Shown here piece after piece: positions 12,481 to 50,065 of a stretch of DNA of 64,000 nt. Source of the DNA: Promethearchaeota archaeon (lineage in GTDB: Archaea > Asgardarchaeota > Lokiarchaeia > Sigyniarchaeales > SOKP01). The translations under genes were made by a program, and so were the position numbers. Within the stretch, counting starts at the first letter, position 1; every line of letters starts with the position of its first letter. Location: assembly GCA_048937405.1 (NCBI GenBank), contig JBHLNF010000011.1, positions 1 to 64,000 on the forward strand, written 5' to 3'. The notes beneath the pieces are model-generated. The model had not been told where the DNA came from, made no database searches, and saw only the letters and a list, made by a program, of their open reading frames with translations.

Positions 12481-12715
12481 CTTTTAACTAAATAATTTTA
12501 TGGATTTTAATATTATAACTTAAGAAGAAACTCAATTTATAGTTATACCTTCTCAAACCTATTTTAATTTACTTTTAAGATATTGAAAAAATTAGATTTT
12601 TGAGATGATCTTCGTGAAATCATCGTTTCACGAACTTTTGTAAGTAATAAACAAGTCTCTTTACTAGTTTAACTCAGAAGTGAGAGGATAATATTCTGTA
12701 AAATTTGATTAGAAC

Positions 12716-32986: not shown

Positions 32987-35176
32987 ATGCCTCGTAGAAA
33001 GGAAATCGCAGAAATACTAAAGCTTATGGAAAAAACTAAAAATATCAGAAATTTTGGTTTAGTTGGACATATAGATCATGGAAAAACAACACTTTCAGAT
33101 TCTCTACTAAGCGAAGCGGGTTTTTTATCCTCAGATTTAGCAGGAGAGGCACGTGCTTTAGATTTTCTTGAGGAAGAACAAAGACGTGGTATTACTATGA
33201 AATCCGCGAACATTTCTTTATACTATGAAAAATCTCTAGAAGGTTATGATCCTTTTCTAATTAATTTAGTAGATACACCAGGTCATTTAGACTTCAGTGG
33301 AAAAGTAACCCGGGCACTTAGGTTGGTAGATGGAGTGGTAGTTGTAGTTGATGCTGTTGAAGAAGTAATAACTCAATCTGAAACGGTAATAAAACAGGCT
33401 TTACAGGAGGGTGTCAAACCTGTACTGTTTATTAATAAAATCGATCGTCTAATTAGAGAATTAAGGCTTTCAGATGGAGAAATTAAAGAAAAATATATAA
33501 GAATTATAAAATCATTCAATACACTTATAGAAAGATTTGCCACACATCCTTTTAATAAAAAATGGAAAGTTTCCCCTCTTGCGGGTAATGTTGCGTTTGG
33601 TTCAGCACTTCATAAATGGGGTTTTACATTAAACATTTTGGAAAAAAGTAGTTTAAAATTCCGTGATATTAGAGAAAGATATAATAAAGAGACCTATACA
33701 AAAGAAACTTATGCAGATTTAGCTACCTATTTTCCAATTCATAAAGCTATATTGGAAATGGTTGTTGATCATTTACCAAATCCTATAGAAGCTCAAAAAT
33801 ATAGAATTAAGAAAATATGGGACGGGGATATTAATTCTGAGTTAGGAAAAGCAATGGTTAATTGTGATCCTAATGGTCCCTTAATTGTATGTTTAAGTAA
33901 AGTTCAAGTTGATAAACATGGTTTAATATCCACAGGAAGGATATTTTCAGGTAGTTGTACAAATAAGAAGGAAATCTTTCTTTTAAATGAAAATACTTAT
34001 GAGAGAATTCAACGTCTTGCCATTTTTATGGGACAAAGAAGGGAACACGCAGAGAAAATACCTGTTGGTAATATTGTAGCAATAGAAGGTCTCAAGAAGA
34101 TTAAAAGCGGAGAAACCATAATAGAAAGTGAAAAAATTGATAAAATGGTACCATTTGAAAGTGTAAAGTATATTACTACTCCAGTTGTAACTGTCTCAAT
34201 TGAACCTGAGTATCTAAGAGATCTAGATAAAATGAAGGAGTTAATAGAAAATCTATTAATAGAAGATCCAAATTTGAAATTCGATATAAATAAAGAAAAT
34301 GGTGAATTTCTTTTATCTGGTGCGGGACCTCTCCACCTGGAGGTAACAGCAAATGAAATTGGAAAGAGAGGGATAAATGTTTCAATTTCTGAGCCTAGAG
34401 CCGTTTTTAAAGAATCCTGTCGAAAAAAGTCCCCTTTAATCTCAGTAACCTCACCTAATAGTACTAGCTTTCTTAAATTAAGAATTGAGCGGTTAGATGA
34501 GATAACTATAAAGTTTTTTCAAGATGTTGATTATAAGACAATAAAACCATTTACAAAACTAAAAGAGATCCTCAGAGAAAAAACTTCACTTAATGAAGAG
34601 GAAATTGAGAACTTTTGGATGTGTGATTATGATCAAAACATCTTAATATATAAGTGTGAATTTGAATTAAAGGAATTTTATAAAAATGCAATCCAAGAAA
34701 TCATTGAAAAGATCCATTTAAATGGTCCTTTATGTGCTGAAAAAATAGCAGAAATTAAAATTACAATTGAAGGATTAAATATATCTGATATACCAGACGA
34801 AAATATTTTTACCGAATTATCAGTTATGTTTTATGACGCTATTAAAAAAGGATTAAATGAAGCAGAATTAATTCTTCTTGAGCCAATATATCATACTATC
34901 ATCCAACTTCCTCCAGATTATATTAAAAATACTATGTCATTACTTACTAAATATTCTGCTAAGATTAAGATGGTAGATCAAGATAAAGATTATCAAGCAG
35001 TTATGGAAATTTTAATTCCTGTGAGGCATTCAATAAAGTTTGCTGAAGAAATTCGGTCAACAAGTTCAGGAAGAGCATTTTGGCAAAATGAATTTTATGC
35101 TTTTATGGAAGTTCCACCGCATGAATCTCAAAAATTAATTCAAGAAATTAAATTTTTCAAAGGAATATCTTGGTAG
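32987..35176 (+). CDS. Elongation factor 2 paralog (aEF-2p-like), lacking diphthamide motif
   Basis: GHIDHGKTTLSD, RGITMK, DTPGHLDF, NKID, EDP, GPLHLEV; domain IV reads LNISDIPDENIF in place of ..HED..HRG; not next to ribosomal protein genes. Confidence 0.9.
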   Translation: MPRRKEIAEILKLMEKTKNIRNFGLVGHIDHGKTTLSDSLLSEAGFLSSDLAGEARALDFLEEEQRRGITMKSANISLYYEKSLEGYDPFLINLVDTPGHLDFSGKVTRALRLVDGVVVVVDAVEEVITQSETVIKQALQEGVKPVLFINKIDRLIRELRLSDGEIKEKYIRIIKSFNTLIERFATHPFNKKWKVSPLAGNVAFGSALHKWGFTLNILEKSSLKFRDIRERYNKETYTKETYADLATYFPIHKAILEMVVDHLPNPIEAQKYRIKKIWDGDINSELGKAMVNCDPNGPLIVCLSKVQVDKHGLISTGRIFSGSCTNKKEIFLLNENTYERIQRLAIFMGQRREHAEKIPVGNIVAIEGLKKIKSGETIIESEKIDKMVPFESVKYITTPVVTVSIEPEYLRDLDKMKELIENLLIEDPNLKFDINKENGEFLLSGAGPLHLEVTANEIGKRGINVSISEPRAVFKESCRKKSPLISVTSPNSTSFLKLRIERLDEITIKFFQDVDYKTIKPFTKLKEILREKTSLNEEEIENFWMCDYDQNILIYKCEFELKEFYKNAIQEIIEKIHLNGPLCAEKIAEIKITIEGLNISDIPDENIFTELSVMFYDAIKKGLNEAELILLEPIYHTIIQLPPDYIKNTMSLLTKYSAKIKMVDQDKDYQAVMEILIPVRHSIKFAEEIRSTSSGRAFWQNEFYAFMEVPPHESQKLIQEIKFFKGISW

Positions 35177-35206: not shown

Positions 35207-36565
35207 TTAAGTTCCAATGAATTTAATAATTTTATCTTTGATTTCATAATTTGGTAGGATATAATCTGCATAACCTTTTTCTGCAGCGAACTTAGGCATT
35301 GCATACAATATACACGTTTCTTCTGCCTCAGCAATTGTTTTTCCGCCTACTTTTTTAATTGCCCCTAAACCTTCTACTCCATCTGATCCCATCCCGGTTA
35401 GAATTACCCCCATAGCACGATTTCTATAAATTTTTGCTGCCGAAAAAAATAATACATCTATGGAAGGCATACAAAAGTTAACTGGAGTTCCTTTATAAAT
35501 TTTAATTGAAGGTGTTTTATTTTTTACAGAAATTTCCATATGCATATCACCTGGAGCAAGATACACATGTCCTGGTTGAAGAAATTCTCCATTTTTTGCT
35601 ACTTTTATTTTAAGAACACATTCCATATCTAAATTATCTGCAAATGCATCAGTAAAATGAGAAGATAAATGCTGAACAATTAAGATTGGAGCATTAATAC
35701 TTCTTGGAATTTCTTTTAATATTGTTGTGATAGTTCTAGGACCCCCAACACTAGCGCCTATAACAATAATATTTGAAGATATAGTAGATCCTTTGATCGG
35801 TGCAAGATCGAGAGTCCTACCAATTTTTCTCTTTTTGATTGGTGTTGATATTGATTTTTTTTGTAAAGTAGATTTAGCTATTTTCTTTTTTGCCTTTTTT
35901 TCTTCTGTTTCTGATTTGATAATTGGTGGTTTAGTAATTTCTTCTTCTGATACTTCTTCTACCATTTGGATATTTTTTTCATCCTTAAGGATTGCCTTGA
36001 CTTTCATAACCTCAAAGGCATCATGTTCTGGTTTTTCTTCAATTTCTTCAATTGGAGTTAATCTATTAAGATATTGTCCAAAATCGAATATACGATCAAC
36101 CATTTCTTGTCGAAGAGATCTACTTTTTTTCAATATACTCTCTTCTTTCCTGAAAATACGTTTAATCTGGGATTGTGATGCTAACAGTACCTTTGCAAGT
36201 AATTCCTCACGAAATCTTGGTAAATCTTTTGCCCCAATACCTCCAGGTTTTATAATATAATCAAATGCTCCCATCAAAAGTGCTTGAATGGAAGAATCTA
36301 GATTCTTTGGACTTATAGCTGAAAGGATAATTGTAGGCGTGGGATGTTCTTCCATAACTAACTTGAATGCATCTAATCCGTTCATTTTAGGCATTACCAA
36401 ATCTAAGACTAATACATCTGGGCTATGTTTTTTATTAAGTTCTACTGCTTCTTTTCCATCCTTTGCAAAGTCAACAATATTTATCGAATCATGTTCTTTA
36501 AGAATATCTGCAATACTCTTTCTTAAATATTGCGAATCATCCGCTATTAATACATCAATCGTCAA
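35207..36565 (-). CDS. cheB: Chemotaxis methylesterase CheB (paralog 2, long linker)
   Basis: REC (ADDS, LDLVMP), GASVGG, VQHL, PSIDVLF, LTGMGSDG. Confidence 0.95.
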   Translation of the reverse strand: MTIDVLIADDSQYLRKSIADILKEHDSINIVDFAKDGKEAVELNKKHSPDVLVLDLVMPKMNGLDAFKLVMEEHPTPTIILSAISPKNLDSSIQALLMGAFDYIIKPGGIGAKDLPRFREELLAKVLLASQSQIKRIFRKEESILKKSRSLRQEMVDRIFDFGQYLNRLTPIEEIEEKPEHDAFEVMKVKAILKDEKNIQMVEEVSEEEITKPPIIKSETEEKKAKKKIAKSTLQKKSISTPIKKRKIGRTLDLAPIKGSTISSNIIVIGASVGGPRTITTILKEIPRSINAPILIVQHLSSHFTDAFADNLDMECVLKIKVAKNGEFLQPGHVYLAPGDMHMEISVKNKTPSIKIYKGTPVNFCMPSIDVLFFSAAKIYRNRAMGVILTGMGSDGVEGLGAIKKVGGKTIAEAEETCILYAMPKFAAEKGYADYILPNYEIKDKIIKFIGT

Positions 36566-36639
36566 ATAAATTTCCTATTTGCTATTAATTAAATATTCTA
36601 ATAATTAGTAAAGTAAGAAAATTTATATGTTACTAAAAG

Positions 36640-36807
36640 TTAAAAAGGGATTGCTATAATTGCCCCAACTAATTCATCCTTAAATCCTTCTACTGAAGCT
36701 CGAGTAATTATCAAACCATCCAGATTAACGATTAAGACTGCTAAGAGGTTCTGCGCTTCATTCAATAATTTAGTAAGTAATTCTTCAAGATCAGTTACTT
36801 GAGATAT
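36640..36807 (-). pseudogene. Truncated roadblock/LC7 (MglB-like) ORF, 55 aa, ATA start
   Basis: ISQVTDLEELLTKLLNEAQNLLAVLIVNLDGLIITRASVEGFKDELVGAIIAIPF*; covers only the first half of the fold; absent from the ORF track. Confidence 0.65.
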
Positions 36808-36846
36808 TTCTCATTCCCTTTGATAGTGTTTTGTTGCTTCCACATT

Positions 36847-37506
36847 TCACAAATTAAGATCATATTTTAAGTTTAAAATCTCAAAAAGGCTCTTTAAAAT
36901 ACTAACAGAAGGTATAAGACAAATAATTCCTTCCAGATTTATTTCAGATACAGTTATTTTTGTATTTATTATAATCAAGTAATCTGATAATTGTGCATAT
37001 TTGGCAATTATAATATCTAAAATGGCATTTAAAGTATCTATTGCTATTTTTGGAATATTTGGAACCAACTTAATTGATAACATATCTGCTAAGGCATTTG
37101 TATAATGACCAGATAAAATGTTTCCTATTTCACTTATAATACTTAATGAAAATTCATCTAAATCCTCAATAGATTTTAGATCCTCAATCGTAAATCTTTC
37201 AGAATTTGTTAATATATTGATTAAATTAACGATTGATTCTTTGGTAAATATCTGAACAATTGCTAAATCTGATTTAAATTGAATTTCTGAATAGATTCCA
37301 ACCATATCAATTGATGTCTTCTCAAATAATTCAGGAACTTTCCAAAAAGAAACAATATCTATGGATGTTAATGAAACTTCAACCTTATTGTTAAGTAATT
37401 TTGATAGTGCTGTTATTGCATGTCCAGAGCCAATATTGCCAAGTTCTTTTAAAATATCTAGTTGTTCATAGCTTAATTTTATATCCCTTGAATCATTCAT
37501 CTTCAA
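36847..37506 (-). CDS. cheC: CheY-P phosphatase CheC
   Basis: DILKELGNIGSGHAITALS and SEIGNIL (two ExxN motifs). Confidence 0.92.
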   Translation of the reverse strand: MKMNDSRDIKLSYEQLDILKELGNIGSGHAITALSKLLNNKVEVSLTSIDIVSFWKVPELFEKTSIDMVGIYSEIQFKSDLAIVQIFTKESIVNLINILTNSERFTIEDLKSIEDLDEFSLSIISEIGNILSGHYTNALADMLSIKLVPNIPKIAIDTLNAILDIIIAKYAQLSDYLIIINTKITVSEINLEGIICLIPSVSILKSLFEILNLKYDLNL

Positions 37507-37543
37507 TCATCTCAATTTTATATTCTTTTCATAAAAATCTTTT

Positions 37544-38092
37544 TTATTCACGTAATTTTTTAAATTTTGATTCTTTTGTCGAACTAACATATACAGAGAA
37601 TTCTTTAGTGTTAAACTTTACAACTCTACCTTCAGATCCTCCCGTATTTTCTCCAATAATTTTAATTTGTAATTCCTTCAATTTTTTTTTGATTGCATTA
37701 ATGTTTTCAGTGCCTATTGTATTGCCTTCGATATCAAAAATCTTAGAACCTCCAATTATAATTGCTTTTATATTTTTCTTTATAGCCCCATGTTTTATTA
37801 ATTCTTGAACTAATAATTTTACGGAGAGATCGGCATATTTATGAGGAAATTCAATATTTTTATGAAGTTTAGAATTAGAAAGTAATACATGAGACATTCC
37901 ACCAACTCTTTTGAGGGAGTCAAAAAGTATTAAAGCAATACAAGAACCTAATCCAATTATTGATATTTTTGGATCGAAATTTCTCACTTTATTTGTACTA
38001 TGTACAATTACATAATGCCCTATTGGTAAGGCAATTTCACCATCCTTACCTGTTATTTCAATACGTCCATTTGAATTTATCTTTTCCATCAT
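37544..38092 (-). CDS. cheD: Chemoreceptor glutamine deamidase CheD
   Basis: GLGSCIALILFD...GGMSHVLL, KYAD, IIGGS, IG.EN, TGG..GR.V.F. Confidence 0.92.
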   Translation of the reverse strand: MMEKINSNGRIEITGKDGEIALPIGHYVIVHSTNKVRNFDPKISIIGLGSCIALILFDSLKRVGGMSHVLLSNSKLHKNIEFPHKYADLSVKLLVQELIKHGAIKKNIKAIIIGGSKIFDIEGNTIGTENINAIKKKLKELQIKIIGENTGGSEGRVVKFNTKEFSVYVSSTKESKFKKLRE

Positions 38093-38109
38093 AAAGAATT
38101 GATATACAC

Positions 38110-39267
38110 TTATATTTCATCTTGAGAAATTGAATAATTACTAGCGAATTTTAACATCTGATCTTTAATTTCATAATTTGGAACTATTAATTTAGCAGCT
38201 CCTCTTTTTATGGCTGCTTTGGGCATACCAAAAACCACACAGGTCTGTTCTGATTCTGCAATTGTTTGACCTCCATTTTTTTTAATCGCTTCTAAACCAG
38301 CAGCACCATCCTGTCCCAATCCTGTTAGTAAAATTCCTAAAATTTGACTTTTATATACTTTTGCTGCTGAAAGAAATAACACATCCACCGAAGGCATACA
38401 AAAATTTACAGGTTCTCCATCTACAATCCTAATAAATTGTTGATTATTTCTTTCCACAACCTCCATATGTTTTCCTCCGGGACTAAGATATGTAATACCA
38501 GGAAGAATTTTTTCACCATTTACAGGGATTTTAACTTCAATATTACAGATCTCATTTAATGATTTTGTGAGTTCTTTCATGAAAAATGCATCTAAATGTT
38601 GAACAACTAAAATTGGCATAGGGAAATTTTTTGGAATATCTTTCAAAATTGTTCTTAAGGTTTTTGGTCCACCAGTACTAGTTCCGATTACTATTGCATT
38701 GGATTTAAATCTCGCTTTAGGTATTGGTTTCTTTTTTGGAATTTTTTCAATCTTCGTTTTTGGTTTTTTAGTTATTTGATATTCGGCACTATCTATAGTA
38801 GAATCAAAAGTTTTCTTAATTGATTTTTTTATTAATAAATTTCTTTTTTCATAAGTCTTTTTAATTTTACTAGCATAAAGCGTACTTAAAATTAATTTTT
38901 CTTTTAATTTGGGGAATTCTTTTTTCCATACTCCTTTTGGTTTCACAATAAAATCAAATGCTCCCAAAAGTAACGCTTGAACAGAATCATCTAATGTTTC
39001 TGGAGATTTAGATGTAAATATTATTGTAGGTATAGGATAATGTTCTGAAAGAAATTTAAAGACAGTTATTCCATCTACTTCAGGCATCATTAAATCCAAA
39101 ATTAGTACATCTGGATTAATAGTCTCAATTTTTTCAATTACTTCTCTTCCATTTATTGCAATATCTACTTTAGCTATTTCATCGCTTGATAATAACATAT
39201 TAGTGACTAATTTTCTCTGAAATGTTGAATCTTCTGCTAGTAACACTTTAATTGGTACTATAATCAC
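38110..39267 (-). CDS. cheB: Chemotaxis methylesterase CheB (paralog 1)
   Basis: REC (AEDS, LDLMMP), GTSTGG, VQHL, PSVDVLF, LTGLGQDG, VFGMPK. Confidence 0.95.
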   Translation of the reverse strand: MIIVPIKVLLAEDSTFQRKLVTNMLLSSDEIAKVDIAINGREVIEKIETINPDVLILDLMMPEVDGITVFKFLSEHYPIPTIIFTSKSPETLDDSVQALLLGAFDFIVKPKGVWKKEFPKLKEKLILSTLYASKIKKTYEKRNLLIKKSIKKTFDSTIDSAEYQITKKPKTKIEKIPKKKPIPKARFKSNAIVIGTSTGGPKTLRTILKDIPKNFPMPILVVQHLDAFFMKELTKSLNEICNIEVKIPVNGEKILPGITYLSPGGKHMEVVERNNQQFIRIVDGEPVNFCMPSVDVLFLSAAKVYKSQILGILLTGLGQDGAAGLEAIKKNGGQTIAESEQTCVVFGMPKAAIKRGAAKLIVPNYEIKDQMLKFASNYSISQDEI

Positions 39268-39393
39268 CTTTTTTTAAATATTTTCGACAACTAATTTAAT
39301 TGAAACCAGTTATTTTCATCGATAAGTGAATCAGAAAATTATGATAATTCAATTCAAATCGAATATCATTATTAGGTCTCAATTTTAAACACT

Positions 39394-39945
39394 TTATTTT
39401 TCTAATAATTTTTCAATTTCAGCAAAACGTTGTTGAATATGAGTAATTGAATAAGTTATATGAGCTTGAATTTCCTTAATCTCAGAGAGGATTTTTCTAA
39501 TGCGAGATTTGACTGTTTTAGATAATTCTTTACCATCTCCCATTATTTCAGATTCCAAACTTTGTTCTGAGGATAAGTTTGCCCCATATATAGAAGACGC
39601 TTGAGTTTGAATTACATATCTAGATTGTCCTGGATATTGTAAGTTAGAATTTTGTTCTTTAATTTCTTTGAATATTATATGAAACTCTGAGGGTTCAAGA
39701 CCTTCTTTAATAACTTCATATTTAAAATTATAAAATTTTTTTTTTGTTTTAAGTTTTCCAGCAAAATTAGCTGCCATGTAACGATGGAATAATCGAGAAT
39801 GACTACCTGCCCAAATCCAAATTAGTTTTAATTCTTTGTCTACAATTAAATATACACTATTAGGATCAAAAATCTTCTCTGGTCTTAATTTTAGTGTTTC
39901 ACCTTGCACTTCGTAAATGTAATCGTAATAACCGCTTTTTAACAT
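39394..39945 (-). CDS. Single gelsolin-like domain protein with C-terminal coiled coil
   Basis: FDPNSVYLIVD..LIWIWAG..S....Y.AA..A..L....EVIKEGLEPSEF follows the gelsolin-repeat consensus. Confidence 0.75.
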   Translation of the reverse strand: MLKSGYYDYIYEVQGETLKLRPEKIFDPNSVYLIVDKELKLIWIWAGSHSRLFHRYMAANFAGKLKTKKKFYNFKYEVIKEGLEPSEFHIIFKEIKEQNSNLQYPGQSRYVIQTQASSIYGANLSSEQSLESEIMGDGKELSKTVKSRIRKILSEIKEIQAHITYSITHIQQRFAEIEKLLEK

Positions 39946-40068
39946 GACATTTCAGTAGATATTGGTTTTGTTGATATATTAAGACTTATTATAAATTTGG
40001 GTTTTTATATTTATTTTAGAAAATTTTATAAAAAAAAAAAATAATTGTTTGATAGCTAGTAATAGATT

Positions 40069-42054
40069 TTAAGAATAAAACCTTAAAAGTGCCTCCAATA
40101 ATTCTTGCAGTGTTTCTAAGTTAGGGATAAATAAAAAAGTTCCAGTGACTTTTATATCTGTTATTATTACATTAGTAGTAATTACCAGTGATAATTTTTT
40201 AAGTAAACCAATTTCTTCTTTTAAAATTTTAAATAATTGACGTCCAGTATCTACACTCATATCTGGAGGTTCTGTCATTAATCTTATACCTAGTAGATCT
40301 CCAATAGCACTTACATAATGGCTACCCAATATATGCCCTAGTTCTGATATTGCACTATGATATAATTCAGGAAAATCGGATGCTTTATTTAACTTTTTTC
40401 TTAAATCGATTTGTTTTTTGTCATAATCATCCACTATTATAGAAGTTATATCTATAGCATCTTTCAAATTAAATAAAGTAAGTACCGTAGCTCTTGTTTT
40501 ACCAATTACATTACTCCAAGCAACCAAAAGTTTCTCATTTTTATTACTAATAGAATTCGCATATTCATCTAATTCAACCATCTCGACTGAGGGAATATTT
40601 ATATCTACTCGTTTATTAATCATCTGAGCTAAGGCATTAGCGGCATTTCCTGCACCAATATTTCCGACTTCTTGTAATGCATCTCTTTGTACTTCTGTAA
40701 GTTTTATCTTATCGAGATTAGGGACTTTTGATACTCTCTTTGTTGTCATTGTCTTGACAGCTATATCATGTTCAATTCCTAATCTGTTGAAAAATATCTT
40801 TAAGGTTTCGAGATCAGGAATAAAGAAGAACATACCGGTCAATTTCAAATCTGCTACTTTTATTGAAGTTTTTATTATTATAAAATATTGAGCAATAGAT
40901 TTTAATTCTTGAGAAAGAAATTCTCCGATTTCTCCGGCTTCGCTCATTGTAAATTCAGGAATATCAATCATCATTTTTGTTTCTAGTAAATCAGCTAAGG
41001 CTGAAGCATAATGTCCAGCCATGATATTACCCATCTCTACAATAGTAGAAACTGCAAAATCATCAAGATCCTTTTTAGATTTCACAGATTTAGGATCGAT
41101 TTTAGATTGATTCCCAGCTAAATCCGCAATCAATTTCATTAATGGGTGCATTTCAAAAATATTTAATATAGTTGCTTGAGAAGGTTTATCTATATGACAA
41201 AATATCCCACATACCTTTTCCTTATGTCCTCCAAATTGTTTTGGTAATTCATTTAAGGGTATAATACCTACATCTGTGAGAGAAACATCAATTTTCTTTT
41301 TAACTAATCTTGATAAGGCTGTAACCGCATTACCCGTTCCAATATTACCAAGTTCTTTAAGAATATCTTGCTGTTCCTCTGATAAAGATATTTGTTGAGG
41401 TTTTTTTTCTTCTGGAATTTTTGTTAATTTCATTTCGGACGATATGTTTTGAGGGATTACAACAGTTGATTCAATTGTAGGCTCTATTTTTGGTTTAGAT
41501 TTCAATTTAGGTTGTACTTTAGCACGTTCAAGGACTTTAGGCTTTAATTCTTGCTTCTTATCCGTTTTTTTTCCACTACCTTGTAGATACGGTTGGATTA
41601 AGGCATCTAAATCTAATAATATTAGTGCTTCATCCTGAAAAATTCCTGTTAATTTTATCAATCTAAAATCAATATTAGTTTTAACGATAGTACCCTGCTT
41701 TTTAAAGATTGAAAGGGGAATATCTCTAACACCAATTACAGCATCGACTAATAAAGCAATCTTCAAATCCTCATATTCTAATAGTAAAATTCGTGATGTA
41801 TTAGTGAATCCATAATCAATATCAATATCAGATATATTATGTCTTAAAGAGATAATCGAATAAATTTCTCCTCTTATATTAATAATTCCAACAAGAGATT
41901 TTTCTGCTAGTGGAACAGGAATGATATTTTCTCCTGGAACATATATTTCCTTTACATTTTCAACTTCTATAAGATATCTCTCATCAAGAACTTGAATAAT
42001 CACTACATTTAAAGTATCATTAAATTCCTCATTTTTAGCGTTTATTTCTAACAT
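40069..42054 (-). CDS. CheW-CheC-CheC fusion protein
   Basis: N-terminal CheW (IIPVP...VGIINIRGEI, ALLVDAV), K/P-rich linker, two CheC domains (ELGN/EMGN; EVGN/ELGH). Confidence 0.88.
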   Translation of the reverse strand: MLEINAKNEEFNDTLNVVIIQVLDERYLIEVENVKEIYVPGENIIPVPLAEKSLVGIINIRGEIYSIISLRHNISDIDIDYGFTNTSRILLLEYEDLKIALLVDAVIGVRDIPLSIFKKQGTIVKTNIDFRLIKLTGIFQDEALILLDLDALIQPYLQGSGKKTDKKQELKPKVLERAKVQPKLKSKPKIEPTIESTVVIPQNISSEMKLTKIPEEKKPQQISLSEEQQDILKELGNIGTGNAVTALSRLVKKKIDVSLTDVGIIPLNELPKQFGGHKEKVCGIFCHIDKPSQATILNIFEMHPLMKLIADLAGNQSKIDPKSVKSKKDLDDFAVSTIVEMGNIMAGHYASALADLLETKMMIDIPEFTMSEAGEIGEFLSQELKSIAQYFIIIKTSIKVADLKLTGMFFFIPDLETLKIFFNRLGIEHDIAVKTMTTKRVSKVPNLDKIKLTEVQRDALQEVGNIGAGNAANALAQMINKRVDINIPSVEMVELDEYANSISNKNEKLLVAWSNVIGKTRATVLTLFNLKDAIDITSIIVDDYDKKQIDLRKKLNKASDFPELYHSAISELGHILGSHYVSAIGDLLGIRLMTEPPDMSVDTGRQLFKILKEEIGLLKKLSLVITTNVIITDIKVTGTFLFIPNLETLQELLEALLRFYS

Positions 42055-42100
42055 TTTATTTACCTTTTTATTTCTCCTTTTTAATAAATAACTTTGATTT

Positions 42101-42934
42101 TCATTTTAACATAATCCCTTTCCAAATTAATTCTAATTCAGGTTCATCTTCGTTTACTTCTGTAAAAAAATCTACTTGTCTATGTACTGATATTTGCCCA
42201 CCTTTAGAATATTTAAATACATAATTTAACATATCATCTGTATTAGTAAAGTTAAAACCCGCAAGTTTTAATTCAGCATCATTAATAATAATTAAATCTT
42301 CTCTATTAAAAGGACGGTTTTCTTCAATCCATTCAATCCATATCTCTGAATTAAGTTCTTTATTGATAATTTTTATTGATTTATCAATTGGTATATTGCG
42401 GAATGATTTACCTACAGCAAATATGATTTTATCAGGAATTAAATTTTCATTCTTTGCAAATTCATTTATCTTAGCTATTGCTTTATTATAACTATCAATA
42501 TCTAAAACATCATAACATAGAGTTAAAATCACTTCATTTTCTTCAGTTTCAAGAATAAAATCAATTAATAAGTCTGGATTAAGATCTGCGTTAACTTTTA
42601 TCGTTTTGATATTTACGTCTGGTATATATTTAAGATATTGATAAAATCGCCACTTAATGCTTAATTTATCACTTTTTTCCCTGCTAATAAAAATTTGAAA
42701 CATTAATTTTAACTGTTCTATAGTCATTTTTGATAAATTAGCTAGTTTTTCCACATCTTTTCCTAGTTCGACATAATTAATTTTTGATTTTGCATTTGAA
42801 GTTTTTTTTCCAGAAAAATCTTCTAAAAAAATCTTTAATTCATTTTCAGTGAATTGGGGTAGTACTTGTTCAATAAGATATAATAAATATTCTTTTGATT
42901 TGTCATCCATCATTTCATAATACTGTAATTTCAT
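42101..42934 (-). CDS. Hypothetical protein (possible degenerate restriction-endonuclease-like alpha/beta fold)
   Basis: ATG 42934 follows GGAGG SD (preferred to TTG 42976); IDFILET..EVILTLC segment; fold is a guess. Confidence 0.65.
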   Translation of the reverse strand: MKLQYYEMMDDKSKEYLLYLIEQVLPQFTENELKIFLEDFSGKKTSNAKSKINYVELGKDVEKLANLSKMTIEQLKLMFQIFISREKSDKLSIKWRFYQYLKYIPDVNIKTIKVNADLNPDLLIDFILETEENEVILTLCYDVLDIDSYNKAIAKINEFAKNENLIPDKIIFAVGKSFRNIPIDKSIKIINKELNSEIWIEWIEENRPFNREDLIIINDAELKLAGFNFTNTDDMLNYVFKYSKGGQISVHRQVDFFTEVNEDEPELELIWKGIMLK

Positions 42935-42968
42935 ATTATTTCCTCCTAAATTTTTCTTAATTGTTTTT

Positions 42969-44996
42969 TTATCCAACGAAAAATGATTCTAACTCTGAAA
43001 ATTTTTTATCCTTTCCTGTTATGCTTTTTAGATAATACATTATCTCTCTTTCTTGGTAAGGTAAAAGAGTATCAATTGTGAAAGATATCTTTTGTTCACT
43101 ATTTTTCTTTGATTTACTCAGTTTATATTCTATATTTGAGGATATCATTTCAAAAGACCCTGGAAAAGAATCTGTAATATTAACATCATTCAATTTCATA
43201 TTTGAACCATTTTTTGCAGTAATATATATAGCAAATTCATTAGCATTCCTTCCTGGATAAATTTGTTTTCCAACAATTACTTTACGTCTCTTATGAGAAA
43301 TTCTTATTTTAGATTTATCTGTTTTAGATATCTCATCCGAGATCATAAAATATTCTTTTATATAACGATTTTTATATTTTGAATAAAATGTATAAACTCT
43401 AAGTGGGAAAATATAATCTTTTTTATAATCTGGGTTGACTGCTTTGATAGGATATTTCAATTCCAAGAAATCATCCACAGCAATAATTGATTCCAAAGGA
43501 CTTTTCTTTAAATTGATATTTAATTCAATCGTATGCTCATGAGATGAATCTTCATCATCAGGTTTTAGATTCATCTCAATATCCTCAATATCTAATTTAC
43601 CCGACGATTTGGATAATACAAATTCAGAAATATCTCTTGGAGGTAAAAAGTTTTCAGGGATTTTTTCAATAATTTGAAGACCGTTGATTGGAAGTGATCC
43701 TTGATTATTAATAATTATTTGTGAATGTATTAATGTTTCTTCAAATGATTTAACCTCTTCTTCTGATAATTTCTTTTTTATTGACGAATAAGCAACTTTA
43801 AAGAAATTGTCATCGAATCTAGAAGTAATCATTGAATTCTTCTCAGTTTCGTAACCAACTGTATATCCTACTTTTCTTGAAAAGATTGGCTCCTTCTCAT
43901 CAGTAACATAAAAATAATCTGATTTATATTTACCATGTGGATTAATTACTTTTTTACGTAATACTGATCTATCTAATTCTAGGATTTTGTTTTTTTTTGT
44001 CTTATCAAATATTGTTATAGAGTTTAATTTTAATGTAAAATCACTAAGGTTTTCGAATCTAAGAGAACATTTCCAATTATTAGGTTCATGAATTTTCTCT
44101 GTTTTCTTAATGGCATGCATTGCGTGTGAATATGCTGAGAAATGATCGACTCTTACACCTGATATTACTTTCTTTGATAAATTAAAGGTTACTTCAATGT
44201 TTCCTGTGTTGATATTTTCCTTCTTCTTAGGAAATATTTTCGCATAGATAATAATTTCAGCACTTTCTCCTGGATTTAAATCTTTTAATTGGCTCTCGAT
44301 AGAATTTCTTAAAATTTTAAATTCATTACTTTTATTGCTTTCAAACTCAAAATCATAAAAAGCTGGTACGAACGATTTTTTAAACTTAACATTATCAATT
44401 TTTGTGTTTGAAATGTTAATAATATAAATTGTAAATTTAATTGTATTTTCTTTTCCCCATAAAAGTAAATAATGTTTAGTAGGATTTTTTTTCGAGGATT
44501 CTATTTCATTTAACTCCATATCTTCAAAACTACTTTTAAAGAACCCAATATCTTCACTAAGATTTTCAATACTTTCGTTAACTTCTATTAAATCTGGTAA
44601 ATCTTCAGAATTTACAATTTCATATTTCAATACTTTATTTGAATTAGGCTCAAAGACACCTAAATTAAGATTATTTTCTGCTTTTTGATTATCAAATTGT
44701 GAACCAGAGAATTGTAAATTTGCATCCCAAATTCTATCTTTAACAGAATTATTAAAAATTGAAATATTCCCATTCCCTATAACTGATTTTCTTGTTCTAT
44801 CGTTTTGATAATGATATTCCAAGAATTCTTCATTCAATATTAATACTTCTGATGCAGTACCCATATAACTTGATTCAATTTTTTGTTCTCTATGATTTTT
44901 TTGGATAAGTTTACCGCCTTCCCTGATGGGGATACCAAGAAAATTTGGGCTTATTTTTGTTTTTAATTCGTCAAGATCAATTTTTTTAAAACCCAT
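42969..44996 (-). CDS. Cytoplasmic beta-sandwich repeat protein (DUF11/Ig-like)
   Basis: Repeats of I.I.N.S...I..V.I.(D/E/K).(I/F)P..F; no signal peptide or TM. Confidence 0.65.
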   Translation of the reverse strand: MGFKKIDLDELKTKISPNFLGIPIREGGKLIQKNHREQKIESSYMGTASEVLILNEEFLEYHYQNDRTRKSVIGNGNISIFNNSVKDRIWDANLQFSGSQFDNQKAENNLNLGVFEPNSNKVLKYEIVNSEDLPDLIEVNESIENLSEDIGFFKSSFEDMELNEIESSKKNPTKHYLLLWGKENTIKFTIYIINISNTKIDNVKFKKSFVPAFYDFEFESNKSNEFKILRNSIESQLKDLNPGESAEIIIYAKIFPKKKENINTGNIEVTFNLSKKVISGVRVDHFSAYSHAMHAIKKTEKIHEPNNWKCSLRFENLSDFTLKLNSITIFDKTKKNKILELDRSVLRKKVINPHGKYKSDYFYVTDEKEPIFSRKVGYTVGYETEKNSMITSRFDDNFFKVAYSSIKKKLSEEEVKSFEETLIHSQIIINNQGSLPINGLQIIEKIPENFLPPRDISEFVLSKSSGKLDIEDIEMNLKPDDEDSSHEHTIELNINLKKSPLESIIAVDDFLELKYPIKAVNPDYKKDYIFPLRVYTFYSKYKNRYIKEYFMISDEISKTDKSKIRISHKRRKVIVGKQIYPGRNANEFAIYITAKNGSNMKLNDVNITDSFPGSFEMISSNIEYKLSKSKKNSEQKISFTIDTLLPYQEREIMYYLKSITGKDKKFSELESFFVG

Positions 44997-45049
44997 TGCT
45001 TATTTCCTCTAAATTTTTCTTTTTGTGATATATTTATTATTTTAAAAAA

Positions 45050-47122
45050 TTAATTTAAATTAGTAATTATATTTTCTTCTGTTTTAGAGCTAATAATACT
45101 TAAAACATCAAGTATTAAACAAATTGTTCCTTCACCTGTAATTGTAGAGCCTAATATCTCGCGAGAATCAGAATAATTGGATTTAAAAGGTTTTACAACT
45201 ACATCCAGTTGTTGAAGTTGTTTATCGGCAACAAATATAGCTGAATTATCTTCATCCTTTTGACACCATATTGCAATTTTCTTATGAGAATTTGGAGTGC
45301 TTTCAGATCCCATGTTTAGATATTCATTTAAATGAATTAAAGGTATTGTATTTGAATCTATTTTATAATATTGTTCTCCGTCAATATATTCAACTTGGTT
45401 AGGATTGAAAAAATAAATTTGTTTAATATTTTCAGTTGGAATCGCAAATAAATCATCTGCTATTTGGATTAATTGTGCTCTTAAAATTGCCCTTGTAAAG
45501 GGTACGTCTATAGTAAATTTAGTACCTATGTCTTTTTCTGAATGGATTCTTAAATTACCACCTAAATCCTTAATTTTTTCAGCTACAATAGCTAAGCCCA
45601 TACCTCTTCCTGAAATAATATCCGCATCTCCTAATGTAGAAAAGCCGGGTAAAAGAATATAGTGGTGAAGATCTTCTTTTGTTAATTGTTGTGCTTCCTC
45701 GGAGTTATAATAACCTTTGCTTATAACTTTTGCTCTTATTTTATCATAATTAATTCCAGCACCATCATCTTGAATTTCTATGAAAATTGAGCCTGCCCTT
45801 CTGTATGTTTTTAGTTTTAAAACACCAAGTTCATTCTTCCCTTTTTTTTTCCGATTCTTAGGTAATTCAATTCCATGATAAATTGCATTTCTAATTAAAT
45901 GGACTAATGGAGAATTAATTTCTTCTAAGATTTTTCTATCAATTTCAACATTAGTTCCCTCTAGAATAAGCCTAATTTTTTTCCCAGTTTCATTTGCAAC
46001 ATCTCGGACTAATCGTTTATACTTTCTAAATGTTGATTCAACCCTTACTAGTTTTAATTTGAACAGAATTTCTTGAATATCCAAGAAGGGTTTATCCATT
46101 TGATCAATTAACCTTATTATTGTTCTGTCTTCTTTTTCCTTTAAAAGTTGACTAATATGATTTTTCATTATTACGAGTTCTCCGAAGTAATTCATGAGTT
46201 CCTCTAGATATTCAATGTTAACTTTAACACTCATGATTTTTATGTTTTGATCCGAATAACTACCTACAATCCGGGAAACACTCTCTACTTCTTCAATATC
46301 AGCTTCTTCATCAAAATCCTCAATAAGTATTTCCTCACTCATAGATTTTGACTTTTCAAGTTCCCATTTTTCTTTAAGATCATCTATAGTCTTACTAAAT
46401 TCTTCAGATTTTATTGGAGTGATTACTATACTTTCAATTTCAAGAATTTCATCTAAAATCTGAAAAAGATTATCTTTGGTAGTCTGAGTGATGTAAAAGA
46501 TTTCAAACTCACTTCTAATTGTAGCTTTTTCTAGCTCTTCAGGAGTAGGATTAGTCCAACATATTTTACCATTTTCATTTAATGCTCTAAATATTATGAA
46601 TAATCTTACTTTTTTAAAAACACAAGTTTCTTCAAGACGAATATAAATCTTAAATGATTTATTTTTATTTTGACTTAATAATTTTGTAATTTCATCTGAT
46701 TCTAAAGGTTGAATAAAAGTAATACTATAATCCGTTTCAAAAGTATCAAAGCTATTTTTTATATCTTCAACGAAATTTGCATCAAGATCATTCATATTTC
46801 CAGTTTTTACTCGCTTTAAAATATTTCTTAACACATCTAGACTCTCAAATAACATATCTATGAAATTTCCTTGTTTGGTTTTAGAAACATTATTATCTTT
46901 AGCATTATCTAAAAAAGATTCAAAATGATGGCAAAACTTAGACAAATTCTCAAAACCTGCCATAGCAGTTAATCCTTTTAATGTATGAAATGTAAAGAAT
47001 AGTTCTTTAATTGGTTTAGGATTATCTGGATTTTCTTCTAAAGCAAGAATTTCTTCTTCAGTCTTTTGAATTAAATCCTCTGCTTCACTTATGAAAAGCT
47101 TTATATCGTCATCAGATGACAC
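45050..47122 (-). CDS. cheA: Chemotaxis histidine kinase CheA
   Basis: Hpt FHTLKG, P2 (IRLEETCVFKKVR), dimerisation LMNYFGELVI, HLIRNAIYHGIE, DDGAGI, GFST, SGRGMGL, C-terminal CheW-like domain. Confidence 0.97.
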   Translation of the reverse strand: MSSDDDIKLFISEAEDLIQKTEEEILALEENPDNPKPIKELFFTFHTLKGLTAMAGFENLSKFCHHFESFLDNAKDNNVSKTKQGNFIDMLFESLDVLRNILKRVKTGNMNDLDANFVEDIKNSFDTFETDYSITFIQPLESDEITKLLSQNKNKSFKIYIRLEETCVFKKVRLFIIFRALNENGKICWTNPTPEELEKATIRSEFEIFYITQTTKDNLFQILDEILEIESIVITPIKSEEFSKTIDDLKEKWELEKSKSMSEEILIEDFDEEADIEEVESVSRIVGSYSDQNIKIMSVKVNIEYLEELMNYFGELVIMKNHISQLLKEKEDRTIIRLIDQMDKPFLDIQEILFKLKLVRVESTFRKYKRLVRDVANETGKKIRLILEGTNVEIDRKILEEINSPLVHLIRNAIYHGIELPKNRKKKGKNELGVLKLKTYRRAGSIFIEIQDDGAGINYDKIRAKVISKGYYNSEEAQQLTKEDLHHYILLPGFSTLGDADIISGRGMGLAIVAEKIKDLGGNLRIHSEKDIGTKFTIDVPFTRAILRAQLIQIADDLFAIPTENIKQIYFFNPNQVEYIDGEQYYKIDSNTIPLIHLNEYLNMGSESTPNSHKKIAIWCQKDEDNSAIFVADKQLQQLDVVVKPFKSNYSDSREILGSTITGEGTICLILDVLSIISSKTEENIITNLN

Positions 47123-47151
47123 ATAATCACCTTAATTCCTCTTTATTATAA

Positions 47152-47550
47152 TTATTTCTTCTCTACTGGTTTATTTTTAAGTATTCGGTCCATGACCTCT
47201 AATATTTGCTCGGTCTTGAAGGGCTTTTGTATAAAGTCTTTTGCCCCTTTCTTCGCTGCTTCAAGAACTAAAGCTTCCTGACCTAGCGCAGAAACTACTA
47301 TAATTACTGCTTTCGGGTTTATTTTTAAAATCTCCTCTGTTGCTTCAATACCACCCTTTTCTGGCATTACTAAATCCATGGTTACTAAATCAGGATTTAA
47401 TTTCTTATATAGGGAGATTGCTTCTACACCATTCGAAGCTTCGCCTACAACCTCAATTTGTTCGATTTTATTAATTATGTTTTTCAACATATTCCGGGTG
47501 AATTGTGCGTCATCTACTATTAGGACCTTTTTTTTATTATTCTTTGACAT
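47152..47550 (-). CDS. cheY: Chemotaxis response regulator CheY
   Basis: VLIVDDAQFTR, PDLVTMDLVMP, VSALGQ, GAKDFIQKPF (archaeal/Firmicute CheY pattern). Confidence 0.95.
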   Translation of the reverse strand: MSKNNKKKVLIVDDAQFTRNMLKNIINKIEQIEVVGEASNGVEAISLYKKLNPDLVTMDLVMPEKGGIEATEEILKINPKAVIIVVSALGQEALVLEAAKKGAKDFIQKPFKTEQILEVMDRILKNKPVEKK

Positions 47551-47577
47551 TTTATCAACTCCTATTTTTATTTAAGT

Positions 47578-48111
47578 TTAGGTTGATGCCGATAAATCTT
47601 TCTGGATTTTGAGTTTATCTACATCACTAAAAATCTTACTTAAATCAAGCAATATCCTTGGTCTTTCTTCAAATTTAATAATTCCCTTGATATATTCCAT
47701 TGCAACACTGGTCTGAAATATTGGACTCAATCCTATTATTTCAGCTGGTTTTATATGATCAATACTAAGGATAGAATCTGAATAAAAACCGATTAAATCA
47801 TTATCTATTTTTAGAATTATTATAAATTTTTTATTAGTTTTTGAATCTTGCTTAAATGAAGAACGCCTTGATTGATACAATTCTGAGTTAGTTAATTCTA
47901 ATTTTTTCGTCAGGTTAATTACATGAATAATTTCTCCTCTATAATTGTAAATGCCATCTATATAATCCACACTTTTGGGTAGTTTTCTAACTAAACCTGC
48001 TTGAATTATCTCCTTTACATCATATAAATCTATACAGAACTCTTCCCATCCAATTTGAAAGGATAGGATAGAAACTTGATTCAGTCCTTCATAATTTTGT
48101 TTTTGGCTCAT
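47578..48111 (-). CDS. cheW: Chemotaxis adaptor CheW
   Basis: FQIG.EEFCI...VKEII, LP...YIDGIYNYRGEII.VINL, YIKGIIK...ILLDL. Confidence 0.92.
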   Translation of the reverse strand: MSQKQNYEGLNQVSILSFQIGWEEFCIDLYDVKEIIQAGLVRKLPKSVDYIDGIYNYRGEIIHVINLTKKLELTNSELYQSRRSSFKQDSKTNKKFIIILKIDNDLIGFYSDSILSIDHIKPAEIIGLSPIFQTSVAMEYIKGIIKFEERPRILLDLSKIFSDVDKLKIQKDLSAST

Positions 48112-48129
48112 TTTTTTATAACCTATTTT

Positions 48130-48948
48130 TTATATTATAAAATATTGATTAATTTTTTTTTCAAATTCGTTAAATGGAGTAACATCTCCATTAAAATCTT
48201 TTATATAATCGCGGAAATCGAAGATAAATTCGTCCGCGATAAGATACATATACCTTTGAAGTAATGAATTCATATTTTCAACCAAGAAAGCAAAGATAAC
48301 ATTACTTTTTGATATTACATAAAATTGTTGGTTCCCAAAATTAATTTCCTTAAGCTTTGCTCCCGTTTCCTCACCAATTATCGTATTTGAAAATGACAAT
48401 AAAGCGGATATAAATCCACCTATGTGAACTTCGTGCTCGGCTATATTTGATCGATTTTTATTAATTTTAGATACAAATGGACTTCCTGTAGAACCTATAA
48501 TGAATATTGCAATAACACCATCAGATTTTGGAATTTCAATCTCAGATTTAAAAACATTTTTTATTTCTGATAAAGGAGCATTAGAGAGAATTTGTTTATT
48601 TATTTTTTTCGACAAAAAATATAATTTTGGATAATTAACTGGAACATTTGGTTCTTTTTCTTCCATATACACTATAACAGAAATATTTTTTTCTCCATTT
48701 CTAAAATATTGTATATAAATTGTAAAATCCTCTAATGGAATAATTGAGTTTCCCTGCCTTTTATCAACAATTTCATTTTTATATAACTCAAAAATATTTT
48801 GAATTAACGATACTCCAATGCCCTTCTGAAAAACTACATTGAGCTTTCCACCATTCTCGAGGTCTGAAATGTCCAATAGACCATAACCGAGCATATGTAA
48901 TTTTTCAATTGGTTTACTTGAATTTCGATTTGTATCCATAGCGATCAT
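48130..48948 (-). CDS. Longin-like domain protein
   Basis: C-terminal IFIIGSTGSPF...IGGFISALLSFS.....LKEINFG..FYV......FAFLV.....EF...F...FNGDVTPF, an Asgard longin pattern. Confidence 0.7.
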   Translation of the reverse strand: MIAMDTNRNSSKPIEKLHMLGYGLLDISDLENGGKLNVVFQKGIGVSLIQNIFELYKNEIVDKRQGNSIIPLEDFTIYIQYFRNGEKNISVIVYMEEKEPNVPVNYPKLYFLSKKINKQILSNAPLSEIKNVFKSEIEIPKSDGVIAIFIIGSTGSPFVSKINKNRSNIAEHEVHIGGFISALLSFSNTIIGEETGAKLKEINFGNQQFYVISKSNVIFAFLVENMNSLLQRYMYLIADEFIFDFRDYIKDFNGDVTPFNEFEKKINQYFII

Positions 48949-49420: not shown

Positions 49421-50065
49421 ATGAATGCTCAAGAGGACCTAAATCAGGGAAATGAAATCTATTTACATGAGATTAATATTCGATGCCCACAATGCTCATC
49501 CAATAAGAATTTGAAGATACCAAAAAAAGTCATCGATCAAAGCAAACAGTTGACTACAATCTCAATTCCTTCAAATTTATGTTGCGAACATAGTTTTCAA
49601 GCTTTTGTGGATAAAAACTTTATTGTTAGAGGCTATCAAAAAGTAGATTTTGAATTCTCACATATGGAATTTTATGAAAGTGGTGATGATACTTCTGATA
49701 CCCTTGAATTTACTTCTTTACCAGTTTTTCAGAATATAATCCAATTATTAAGAGATTGTGTAGATGATAATGAAATAATAGGGTCAGGAATCTTTACCGA
49801 TGAGGGAAAAGTATTATATTCTTCTTTACCGCAAACTACTTTATTCAATACAATTAAAGAATTTGAAGTTCGAAATCAGAAGAACCTAATTAGTGTAAAA
49901 AAAATGTATCTCGAATTAGAGAATAACGAGAAGTTTATCTCGAATGTTTTTTCTTTTAATGGAAATAAATTTAATTTGGTCTTAATGTTTGCTTTTAGAG
50001 TAAAATTTGGGATGGGCAACCTTCACATGCGTGATCTCTTAAAAAAGATAAAAAAAATTCATTGA
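49421..50065 (+). CDS. Zn-ribbon plus roadblock-like domain protein
   Basis: CPQC...CCEH.FQAFVDKNF.VRGYQ; C-terminal IGSGIFTDEGKVLYSSL. Confidence 0.65.
   Translation: MNAQEDLNQGNEIYLHEINIRCPQCSSNKNLKIPKKVIDQSKQLTTISIPSNLCCEHSFQAFVDKNFIVRGYQKVDFEFSHMEFYESGDDTSDTLEFTSLPVFQNIIQLLRDCVDDNEIIGSGIFTDEGKVLYSSLPQTTLFNTIKEFEVRNQKNLISVKKMYLELENNEKFISNVFSFNGNKFNLVLMFAFRVKFGMGNLHMRDLLKKIKKIH

Follow-up and report, generated by a model that had tools for sequence, protein, structure and literature searches.

A chemosensory operon with embedded gelsolin-domain, tandem-longin, DUF11 and orphan genes in a Loki-type Asgard archaeon

Archaeal F1-type chemotaxis, known from Halobacterium and Haloferax and characterized by CheF and the ArlCDE switch, is among the closest described relatives of the chemosensory (Che) operon analyzed here. 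The operon occupies positions 35207-48948, on the minus strand, of a 64,000-nucleotide stretch of DNA from a Promethearchaeota archaeon (contig JBHLNF010000011.1), which we refer to as the window. It shares with the F1 systems a Che core that includes genes for the CheC phosphatase and CheD deamidase, a single-domain canonical CheY, and methyl-accepting chemotaxis proteins (MCPs) encoded elsewhere in the genome. It differs from them in several respects. The genome to which the window belongs is without CheF, archaellin, or an ArlJ-type platform, and cheR lies outside the operon. The operon itself adds five or six eukaryote-like or orphan genes, two CheB genes, and a fusion of CheW with two CheC domains (CheW-CheC2).

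A functional analogy is provided by the Frz-MglA/MglB system of Myxococcus xanthus, in which a Che kinase and regulator are tied to a Ras-like GTPase and to roadblock/longin regulators, and movement takes place without flagella (PMC2907295, PMC9481161). In the Asgard system, by contrast, the GTPase and roadblock are fused and lie within the che operon, where they are facultative, and they are dead in the genome studied here. The Asgard system also adds a gelsolin-domain protein and has no identified equivalents of FrzZ, FrzX, or RomR. On the genomic association, the Asgard operon may work like Frz-MglAB, but we do not count it as a member of that class.

Asgard gelsolins, including 1DGelX, a form that combines a gelsolin domain with a coiled coil, sever or bind actin (PMC7444086). 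The gelsolin-domain protein of the operon resembles the Asgard mini-gelsolins ProGel and 1DGelX (Akil et al. 2020, PMC7444086) in having a single gelsolin/cofilin-type domain and, like 1DGelX, a helical or coiled-coil extension. At 183 residues it is much shorter than 1DGelX, carries one helix rather than domain X, and belongs to a separate and highly conserved family of putative actin binders that is confined to this che operon. Both che genes and chemoreceptor arrays have been described in 'Ca. Lokiarchaeum ossiferum', and che gene sets in 27 of 97 Asgard metagenome-assembled genomes (MAGs), with communication, interactions, and motility suggested as roles (PMC9834061). Those sets share with ours Asgard che genes, many MCPs, and no stated motor; they differ in that only cheA, cheB, cheC, cheD, cheR, cheW, cheY, and MCPs are listed. 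Cultured Asgard cells crawl on dynamic, Lokiactin-filled protrusions in a Lokiactin-dependent manner, and gelsolins co-purify with Lokiactin (Nature 2026, PMC13716822); that report mentions neither chemotaxis nor CheA.

Full-text literature searches found no description of gelsolin, longin, or GTPase genes within a che operon, and there is nothing in print on how Asgard crawling is steered or on the target of an Asgard Che system without an archaellum. The operon names five or six proteins that are tied physically and evolutionarily to CheA and CheY, which turns the question into one of binding and actin assays. If a connection from Che to actin were true, it would represent bacterial-type signaling wired to a eukaryote-type cytoskeleton and would bear on the origin of directed cell movement before eukaryotes.

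A Che core inherited with four non-Che genes

The window is contig C16 of a 4.47-Mb genome in 29 contigs, with a marker-gene completeness of 100% and contamination of 5.7%. Its GC content is approximately 27%, its nearest protein relatives in public records come from Promethearchaeota or Lokiarchaeia MAGs, and the listed holders of the stretch are all DNA contigs from sediment or mangrove metagenomes. The operon contains 12 intact genes and one gene remnant, all co-oriented, in the order 272-residue tandem longin (longin2), CheW, CheY, CheA, DUF11 protein, orphan, CheW-CheC-CheC, 183-residue gelsolin protein, CheB, CheD, CheC, a 56-codon remnant, and CheB. Intergenic gaps are 17-126 nucleotides, with the exception of 281 nucleotides around the remnant. 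The first-pass annotation had listed 13 co-oriented minus-strand genes in this order. All 13 items lie where it placed them, one of them being a pseudogene, and its domain calls hold: the gelsolin-domain protein has a gelsolin domain plus a C-terminal helix, the longin-like protein is a tandem longin, and the truncated roadblock is the stub of a roadblock-Ras GTPase.

We compared 16 related loci, drawn from public contigs and from genomes representing four genera of the window's family. The eight-gene block longin2-CheW-CheY-CheA-DUF11-orphan-CheW/CheC2-gelsolin is present in the same order and orientation in all 16, with protein identities of 45-97%. Finding one and the same order in 16 related loci goes far beyond chance, and we reject chance juxtaposition as its source. 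As judged from gene order and sequence, the comparison shows that four non-Che genes (tandem longin, DUF11, orphan, and gelsolin plus helix) have been inherited with the Che core as one operon, to which cheR and a roadblock-Ras GTPase gene are facultative additions. The link between gelsolin, longin, and roadblock genes and the che genes, on which the first-pass proposal depended, is thus tight across related genomes, and the proposal survives the comparison.

Co-occurrence was assessed in a phylum-wide sample of 301 Asgard genomes. Strong orthologs of the gelsolin gene (E<1e-60) are restricted to the window's family. There, 12 of the 13 other genomes with CheA contain one and all 55 genomes without CheA lack it; being related by descent, the genomes do not count as independent. 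The one CheA-positive genome in which it is missing is 84% complete and split into 520 contigs. Where contigs permit, the gelsolin ortholog lies on the same contig as CheA, at a distance of about 6.5 kb. Within the genus the operon has a patchy distribution (8 of 21 sampled species), and it is always gained or lost as a unit. It is best explained as the sole chemosensory system of this Loki-type Asgard archaeon and as a variant of the archaeal/Bacillus-type Che pathway that is specific to the lineage.

Every member of the Che core (CheA, CheW, CheY, CheB, CheC, and CheD) scores above its Pfam cut-off. CheW (47578-48111; E 8e-23) is followed by the single-domain response regulator CheY (47152-47550; Response_reg E 6e-28) and by the histidine kinase CheA (45050-47122), which has Hpt, P2, H-kinase_dim, HATPase_c, and CheW domains. 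The 661-residue CheW-CheC-CheC fusion (40069-42054) matches CheW at E 2e-19 and CheC at E 5e-37 in three stretches. Further downstream are the first CheB methylesterase (38110-39267; 385 residues; Response_reg and CheB_methylest, E 8e-60), CheD (37544-38092; E 1e-22), the 219-residue CheC phosphatase (36847-37506; E 7e-19), and, as the last gene, a second CheB methylesterase of 452 residues with a long linker (35207-36565; Response_reg and CheB_methylest, E 3e-60). The operon CheA is the only CheA of the genome, which leads us to reject the presence of a second che system. At least 10 MCP genes are found elsewhere, together with two CheR matches outside the operon, one of which is full length, lies on another contig, and shares 48% identity with the CheR that relatives encode in the operon.

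CheY retains the residues of the phospho-switch (D13, D14, D59, S87, F106, and K109). In 13 orthologs, residues 85-112 are invariant and the N-terminal half is variable. The invariant run of 28 residues includes the alpha4-beta5-alpha5 face, which is the target-binding surface of response regulators. The ratio of nonsynonymous to synonymous substitution rates (dN/dS) for CheY is about 0.06 when measured against the related loci L050 and L051. A CheY paralog with 66% identity (G000:C7:766411-766770) is an orphan among metabolic genes, and its neighbors are uninformative.

The gelsolin-domain protein (39394-39945) was characterized by profile search and by AlphaFold2 (AF2) modeling with Foldseek. 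It consists of a gelsolin domain (residues 1-110), a disordered linker, and a conserved helix of about 40 residues (143-182). A profile built from 36 orthologs matches Thorarchaeota ProGel best among Protein Data Bank (PDB) entries (7c2f_B, E 7e-7), followed by 2DGel, villin, and CapG. The AF2 model has a predicted local distance difference test score (pLDDT) of 81 overall and about 90 over residues 1-110. Its best Foldseek match is again the ProGel-actin structure 7c2f_B (E 1.3e-6, template modeling (TM) score 0.76, root-mean-square deviation (rmsd) 2.1 Å over 80 columns), and 37 gelsolin-family chains are matched at E<=1e-3. According to the model, the protein has a gelsolin fold, with a central sheet packed against a long helix. 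This long helix (residues 50-66) shows almost no variation within the family and is the most conserved part of the gelsolin; it is the helix that binds actin in solved gelsolin-actin complexes. The genome contains five actin-family genes, two of them with E below 1e-126. The near-invariant helix and the presence of Lokiactin-type genes in the genome make the 183-residue protein a candidate actin binder or regulator.

A paralogous gelsolin-plus-helix gene, whose product passes the Pfam Gelsolin cut-off at 26.4 bits, is present in che-negative genomes of the same family. In two loci (L053:5986-9319 and L054:5995-9278) it stands in a conserved row of genes for a Roadblock/LC7 protein, a 312-residue protein, the gelsolin paralog, a FIST sensor, LuxE, and LuxC; the N-terminus of the 312-residue protein is roadblock-like by eye only. 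This FIST/roadblock neighborhood is a second case in which the gelsolin subfamily is found beside roadblock and sensory proteins, and it lends some support to a signaling role for the subfamily.

The first operon gene (48130-48948) encodes longin2, for which neither Pfam nor PDB profile searches gave a sequence-level match, the only PDB profile match across the searches with longin2, the GTPase N-terminus, and the divergent 214-residue protein described below being a designed repeat protein. The AF2 model (pLDDT 81, predicted TM score 0.76) contains two beta-beta-alpha-beta-beta-beta-alpha-alpha units. By structural alignment, residues 143-272 match the longin domain of Sec22b (Z 12.8, rmsd 2.9, 123 residues aligned), TRAPP (Z 12.7), and Fuzzy (Z 12.2), and residues 19-138 match the Lst4 longin (Z 10.7) and a Lokiarchaeota Roadblock-Longin protein (Z 10.3). 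Foldseek likewise ranks high the multi-longin subunits of Rab guanine nucleotide exchange factors (GEFs) Fuzzy and Mon1-Ccz1. Both halves of longin2 therefore have, in the predicted structure, a longin fold. Longin2 is a putative GEF or GTPase-activating platform for a small GTPase; its likeness to Mon1-Ccz1 and Fuzzy does not extend beyond the fold. Longin2, with dN/dS of 0.03-0.08, and CheY are the most constrained genes of the operon. A longin2 paralog with 39% identity (G000:C7:510632-511369) sits beside small zinc-ribbon or unknown genes, and these neighbors are uninformative.

Immediately after cheA come genes for two further proteins. The 675-residue DUF11 protein (42969-44996), a multi-immunoglobulin beta-sandwich protein, scores 32.7 bits against a Pfam cut-off of 24.6 and is encoded in every locus compared; its Atlas neighbors are archaeal DUF11 clusters. 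We take it to be cytoplasmic because it has no hydrophobic segment (maximum KD19 hydrophobicity 0.76). In a sister-family genome whose CheA shares 27% identity, cheA is again followed directly by a gene for a DUF11 homolog (24% identity, E 1e-18), at locus L048 (G094:C202:9628-10929), where the contig ends. The 277-residue orphan (42101-42934) has no Pfam match. Ortholog alignment places its start at the ATG at 42934 and not at the TTG at 42976. Among 1.84 billion proteins, its family accounts for only 60 cluster representatives, and the contigs that carry its distant relatives are about 1 kb long and offer no gene context. A search of 28 CheA-positive Asgard genomes from other families did not detect it. 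The Atlas model of the orphan is of low confidence and bears a faint likeness to PD-(D/E)XK or DUF234 folds that is insufficient for assigning a fold.

Strict co-inheritance with CheA, CheW, and CheY is what would be expected of structural partners, and the embedded proteins could accordingly be ones that build or position the chemoreceptor array. The gelsolin protein would then tether arrays to actin, the DUF11 protein, orphan, and longin2 would be baseplate or localization factors, and the target of phosphorylated CheY (CheY-P) would lie elsewhere. The placement of the DUF11 and orphan genes directly after cheA fits this alternative, as does the DUF11 homolog after cheA in the sister-family genome with its very divergent CheA, and the additional CheW domain in the CheW-CheC2 fusion suggests an array of elaborated architecture. 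On the other hand, with CheF, archaellin, and T2SSF all missing, the genome has no other detectable CheY target; proteins of the longin and roadblock-GTPase kinds are established as switch regulators rather than scaffolds; and a paralogous gelsolin module exists without a Che array. We consider a purely array-building role a minority prospect, to be taken seriously all the same.

Loss of the operon cheR and the roadblock-Ras GTPase

In relatives, an intact GTPase gene of about 319 codons lies between cheC and the last cheB. The encoded protein matches Pfam Ras at E 3e-39 and has the P-loop and NKxD motifs. Its N-terminus falls below the Pfam Robl_LC7 cut-off in three orthologs (E 3e-4 to 4e-3) and aligns with the Robl_LC7 proteins of the window's own genome by hhalign (83.7%, E 8e-6, over only 56 columns); a PDB profile search with this N-terminus found nothing relevant. 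In the window the position is occupied by a pseudogene remnant (36640-36810), a 56-codon open frame with 53% identity to residues 1-53 of the 319-residue orthologs. The start codon is ATA instead of ATG, and about 262 codons, including the G domain, have been lost through an in-frame deletion that lies between the near-repeats ATAGCAATC and ATATCAATC. As a consequence, codons 1-54 run in frame into the final two codons of the gene, after which the native stop codon and 3' flank follow. The genome also encodes five full-length paralogs of the roadblock-GTPase, as well as dozens of small GTPases. Since these paralogs share only about 30% identity with the operon GTPase, we reject the idea that its ortholog has been translocated elsewhere in the genome.

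The second lesion concerns cheR. Relatives carry this gene (about 343 codons) between the gelsolin gene and cheB, where the window has a spacer of 126 nucleotides (39268-39393). The operon cheR is intact in nine loci, a stub in two, and absent from the window genome, L050, and L051. The closest relative is L050, with a gelsolin protein 90% identical to that of the window. It has in common with the window the cheR deletion, a homologous spacer, and the ATG-to-ATA change in the GTPase gene. The L050 GTPase gene (12176-13105) is otherwise full length, with one in-frame TAG in the switch-I region, which represents either an earlier stage of the same pseudogenization or a sequencing error. The GTPase gene is wholly absent from L051 and L016, and L015 combines a cheR stub with an intact GTPase gene. 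An intact GTPase gene accompanies all nine intact copies of cheR and is missing from four of the five loci without one, a pattern among kin genomes that is not a statistical test. The sites of joint loss in the window, compared with L015, L016, L050, and L051, are 39268-39393 and 36566-36846.

Contigs from other sediment samples bridge both lesions: X5 spans 36585-37445 with 18 differences and no gaps, and the cheR site is covered by X3 (39125-39408) and X5 (39125-39486). The lesions are thus not assembly artifacts, and we reject that explanation for either of them.

Despite these losses, all 12 intact genes have dN/dS of 0.03-0.38 against L050 and L051, indicating purifying selection. What is new in this genome is a natural knock-out, in which cheR is gone from the operon, the GTPase is dead, and 12 genes are still selected. 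Because the losses coexist with continued selection, the GTPase and the operon cheR are accessories that can be dispensed with, and the core consists of the gelsolin, longin, orphan, and DUF11 genes. The dispensability of the GTPase also follows from its having been lost or inactivated in at least three ways in close relatives. In this sense the loss of the GTPase and cheR, with selection kept on the gelsolin, longin, DUF11, and orphan genes, is a natural experiment that separates core from accessory parts.

Two lesions in one operon, with related lesions in the closest relatives and a patchy distribution of che operons among the sampled species of the genus, could alternatively mean that the operon is a decaying relic of a system that no longer works, the loss of cheR and the GTPase marking the onset of pseudogenization. 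The other 12 frames are intact and constrained even when measured against relatives with the same lesions, and a full-length CheR paralog and at least 10 MCP genes remain in the genome. We regard decay of the whole system as very improbable.

The truncated roadblock gene of the first-pass annotation turns out to be the remnant of a roadblock-Ras GTPase. The Frz-MglAB analogy drawn in that annotation gains weight because this GTPase is intact inside the operons of relatives; it loses ground in the present genome, where the GTPase branch is dead. With the operon GTPase dead, small-GTPase polarity is not the output here unless a paralog substitutes for it.

Such a substitution features in an alternative according to which the pathway drives a small-GTPase/longin switch that governs adhesion, polarity, or membrane traffic and not actin. 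In that case the gelsolin fold would be re-used for a non-actin partner, and a paralogous roadblock-GTPase would stand in where the operon copy is lost. In favor of this alternative, longin2 is the most constrained gene and is similar to longin subunits of Rab GEFs (Fuzzy and Mon1-Ccz1), the GTPase of relatives is a canonical Ras-family protein with a roadblock-like N-terminus, and both full-length fusion paralogs and many small GTPases are available in the genome. The low identity of the paralogs speaks against this alternative, as do the decay of the operon GTPase alongside intact longin2 and gelsolin genes and the concentration of conservation in the gelsolin helix that contacts actin in solved complexes. 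We think a GTPase/longin output without actin unlikely.

Candidate output of the pathway

The first-pass annotation reported no cheF or archaellum gene in the window and proposed a search of the genome for them. The absence extends to the entire 4.47-Mb genome, which yields no CheF, archaellin, or type-IV platform protein to explain the output. CheF (PF04283) is matched neither in the window genome nor among the 301 Asgard genomes, 42 of which have CheA; the control was matched in three archaea. Archaellin (PF01917) is likewise without a match in the window genome, with the control matched in 4 of 14 genomes, and exceeds the cut-off in two of the 301 Asgard genomes, neither of them a che-positive genome of the window's family. 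With CheA in 42 of 301 genomes, CheF in none, and archaellin in two, the question of the missing output applies to Asgard Che systems in general. The T2SSF/ArlJ-type platform (PF00482) has no match in the window genome, and its control matched 13 of 14 genomes. The only T2SSE-type ATPases are an orphan 730-residue protein without pilus neighbors and a PIN-ATPase, and with T2SSF missing we reject a type-IV pilus as the output.

The lack of a detectable motility organelle is compatible with a Che pathway that serves another purpose in the cell, for example in development, cell-cell contact, or gene expression. The non-Che genes would then be lineage-specific passengers, retained through the operon structure and with no direct part in signaling. 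Many bacterial Che-like systems are established as controlling processes other than motility. Passengers, however, would not keep their order and remain under purifying selection across four genera while cheR and cheB come and go, and the orphan and the gelsolin ortholog are found only with this operon. A non-motility function with passenger genes seems to us quite improbable.

The reading that we prefer, tentatively, is that the pathway acts through CheY-P, an adaptor, and the gelsolin protein on Lokiactin, a mechanism put together from genomics as a whole. Receptor arrays assembled from the MCPs encoded elsewhere would control CheA. CheY-P, reset by CheC and the CheW-CheC2 fusion, would act via its invariant alpha4-beta5-alpha5 face on an operon-encoded adaptor that takes the place of CheF and that may be longin2, the orphan, or the DUF11 protein. 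The signal would end at the gelsolin protein and produce a local change in Lokiactin filament dynamics, resulting in biased protrusion or crawling. A further switch or polarity layer, similar in logic to Frz-MglAB, would come from the roadblock-Ras GTPase in relatives. In the window genome this layer would be dead, and adaptation would rely on the CheR paralog encoded elsewhere. Given the dead GTPase layer, the system here works, if at all, via the invariant longin/orphan/gelsolin set. The fuller claim, that a prokaryotic two-component Che pathway steers actin-based crawling or protrusion in the closest relatives of eukaryotes via CheY-P, a longin or orphan adaptor, and a dedicated gelsolin, is unlikely as a complete account; were it correct, the GTPase-null variants would show a gelsolin route independent of a Ras-like switch.

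The first-pass annotation had proposed that CheY-P controls either actin or small-GTPase polarity. The tight linkage of the genes and the lack of a known output favor that view, and the dead operon GTPase and the removal of cheR from the operon detract from it. Several further observations weigh against an actin output. The Pfam Gelsolin model (PF00626) gives the 183-residue protein alone 13.2 bits against a cut-off of 21. ProGel, its closest solved relative, binds rabbit actin weakly, with a dissociation constant of about 337 uM (PMC7444086). The longer proteins searched included no fusions of Che proteins with gelsolin or of gelsolin with other domains, which is weak evidence. The che clusters examined in other Asgard families have CheA 26-33% identical to that of the window and are without gelsolin, longin2, or orphan; because these other cluster types lack the genes, a Che-actin link, if there is one, is not general to Asgard archaea. 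The GTPase, the most Frz/Mgl-like element, is the very part that has been lost or inactivated separately, at least three times over, in close relatives. The two central contacts, of CheY-P with the embedded proteins and of the 183-residue protein with Lokiactin, are ones that we infer, and the genomic linkage fits a positioning or scaffold role equally as well as an output role. Prediction of a four-chain complex of CheY, the gelsolin protein, the orphan, and longin2 in a single job returned a score of 0.00 and a mark of 0.32, values that speak neither for nor against an interaction.

Genes flanking the operon

A divergent gene upstream of the operon (49421-50065, plus strand) is a possible extra part. 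It encodes a 214-residue protein with a Cys-rich, zinc-ribbon-like N-terminus and a roadblock-like C-terminal domain, the latter matched weakly to the genome's own Robl_LC7 proteins by hhalign (46.7%, E 2e-4); a PDB profile search with the protein gave nothing usable. The gene is kept at the same position in five loci (L011, L012, L020, L051, and L052), and a paralog follows cheC in genus-g7 loci (L023:5847-6455 and L024:6-272). The divergent gene is a putative member of the system.

On the other side, the last cheB is convergent with a gene for elongation factor 2 (EF-2; 32987-35176, plus strand), beyond which lies a formyltransferase-like gene (32146-32778, plus strand). Both flank the operon in most related loci, which means that within the genus the operon occupies a conserved insertion site. 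A histidine kinase with PAS, HisKA, and HATPase domains is encoded on the opposite strand (51202-52320, plus), some 2 kb upstream, and a similar kinase is encoded near the operon in L014.

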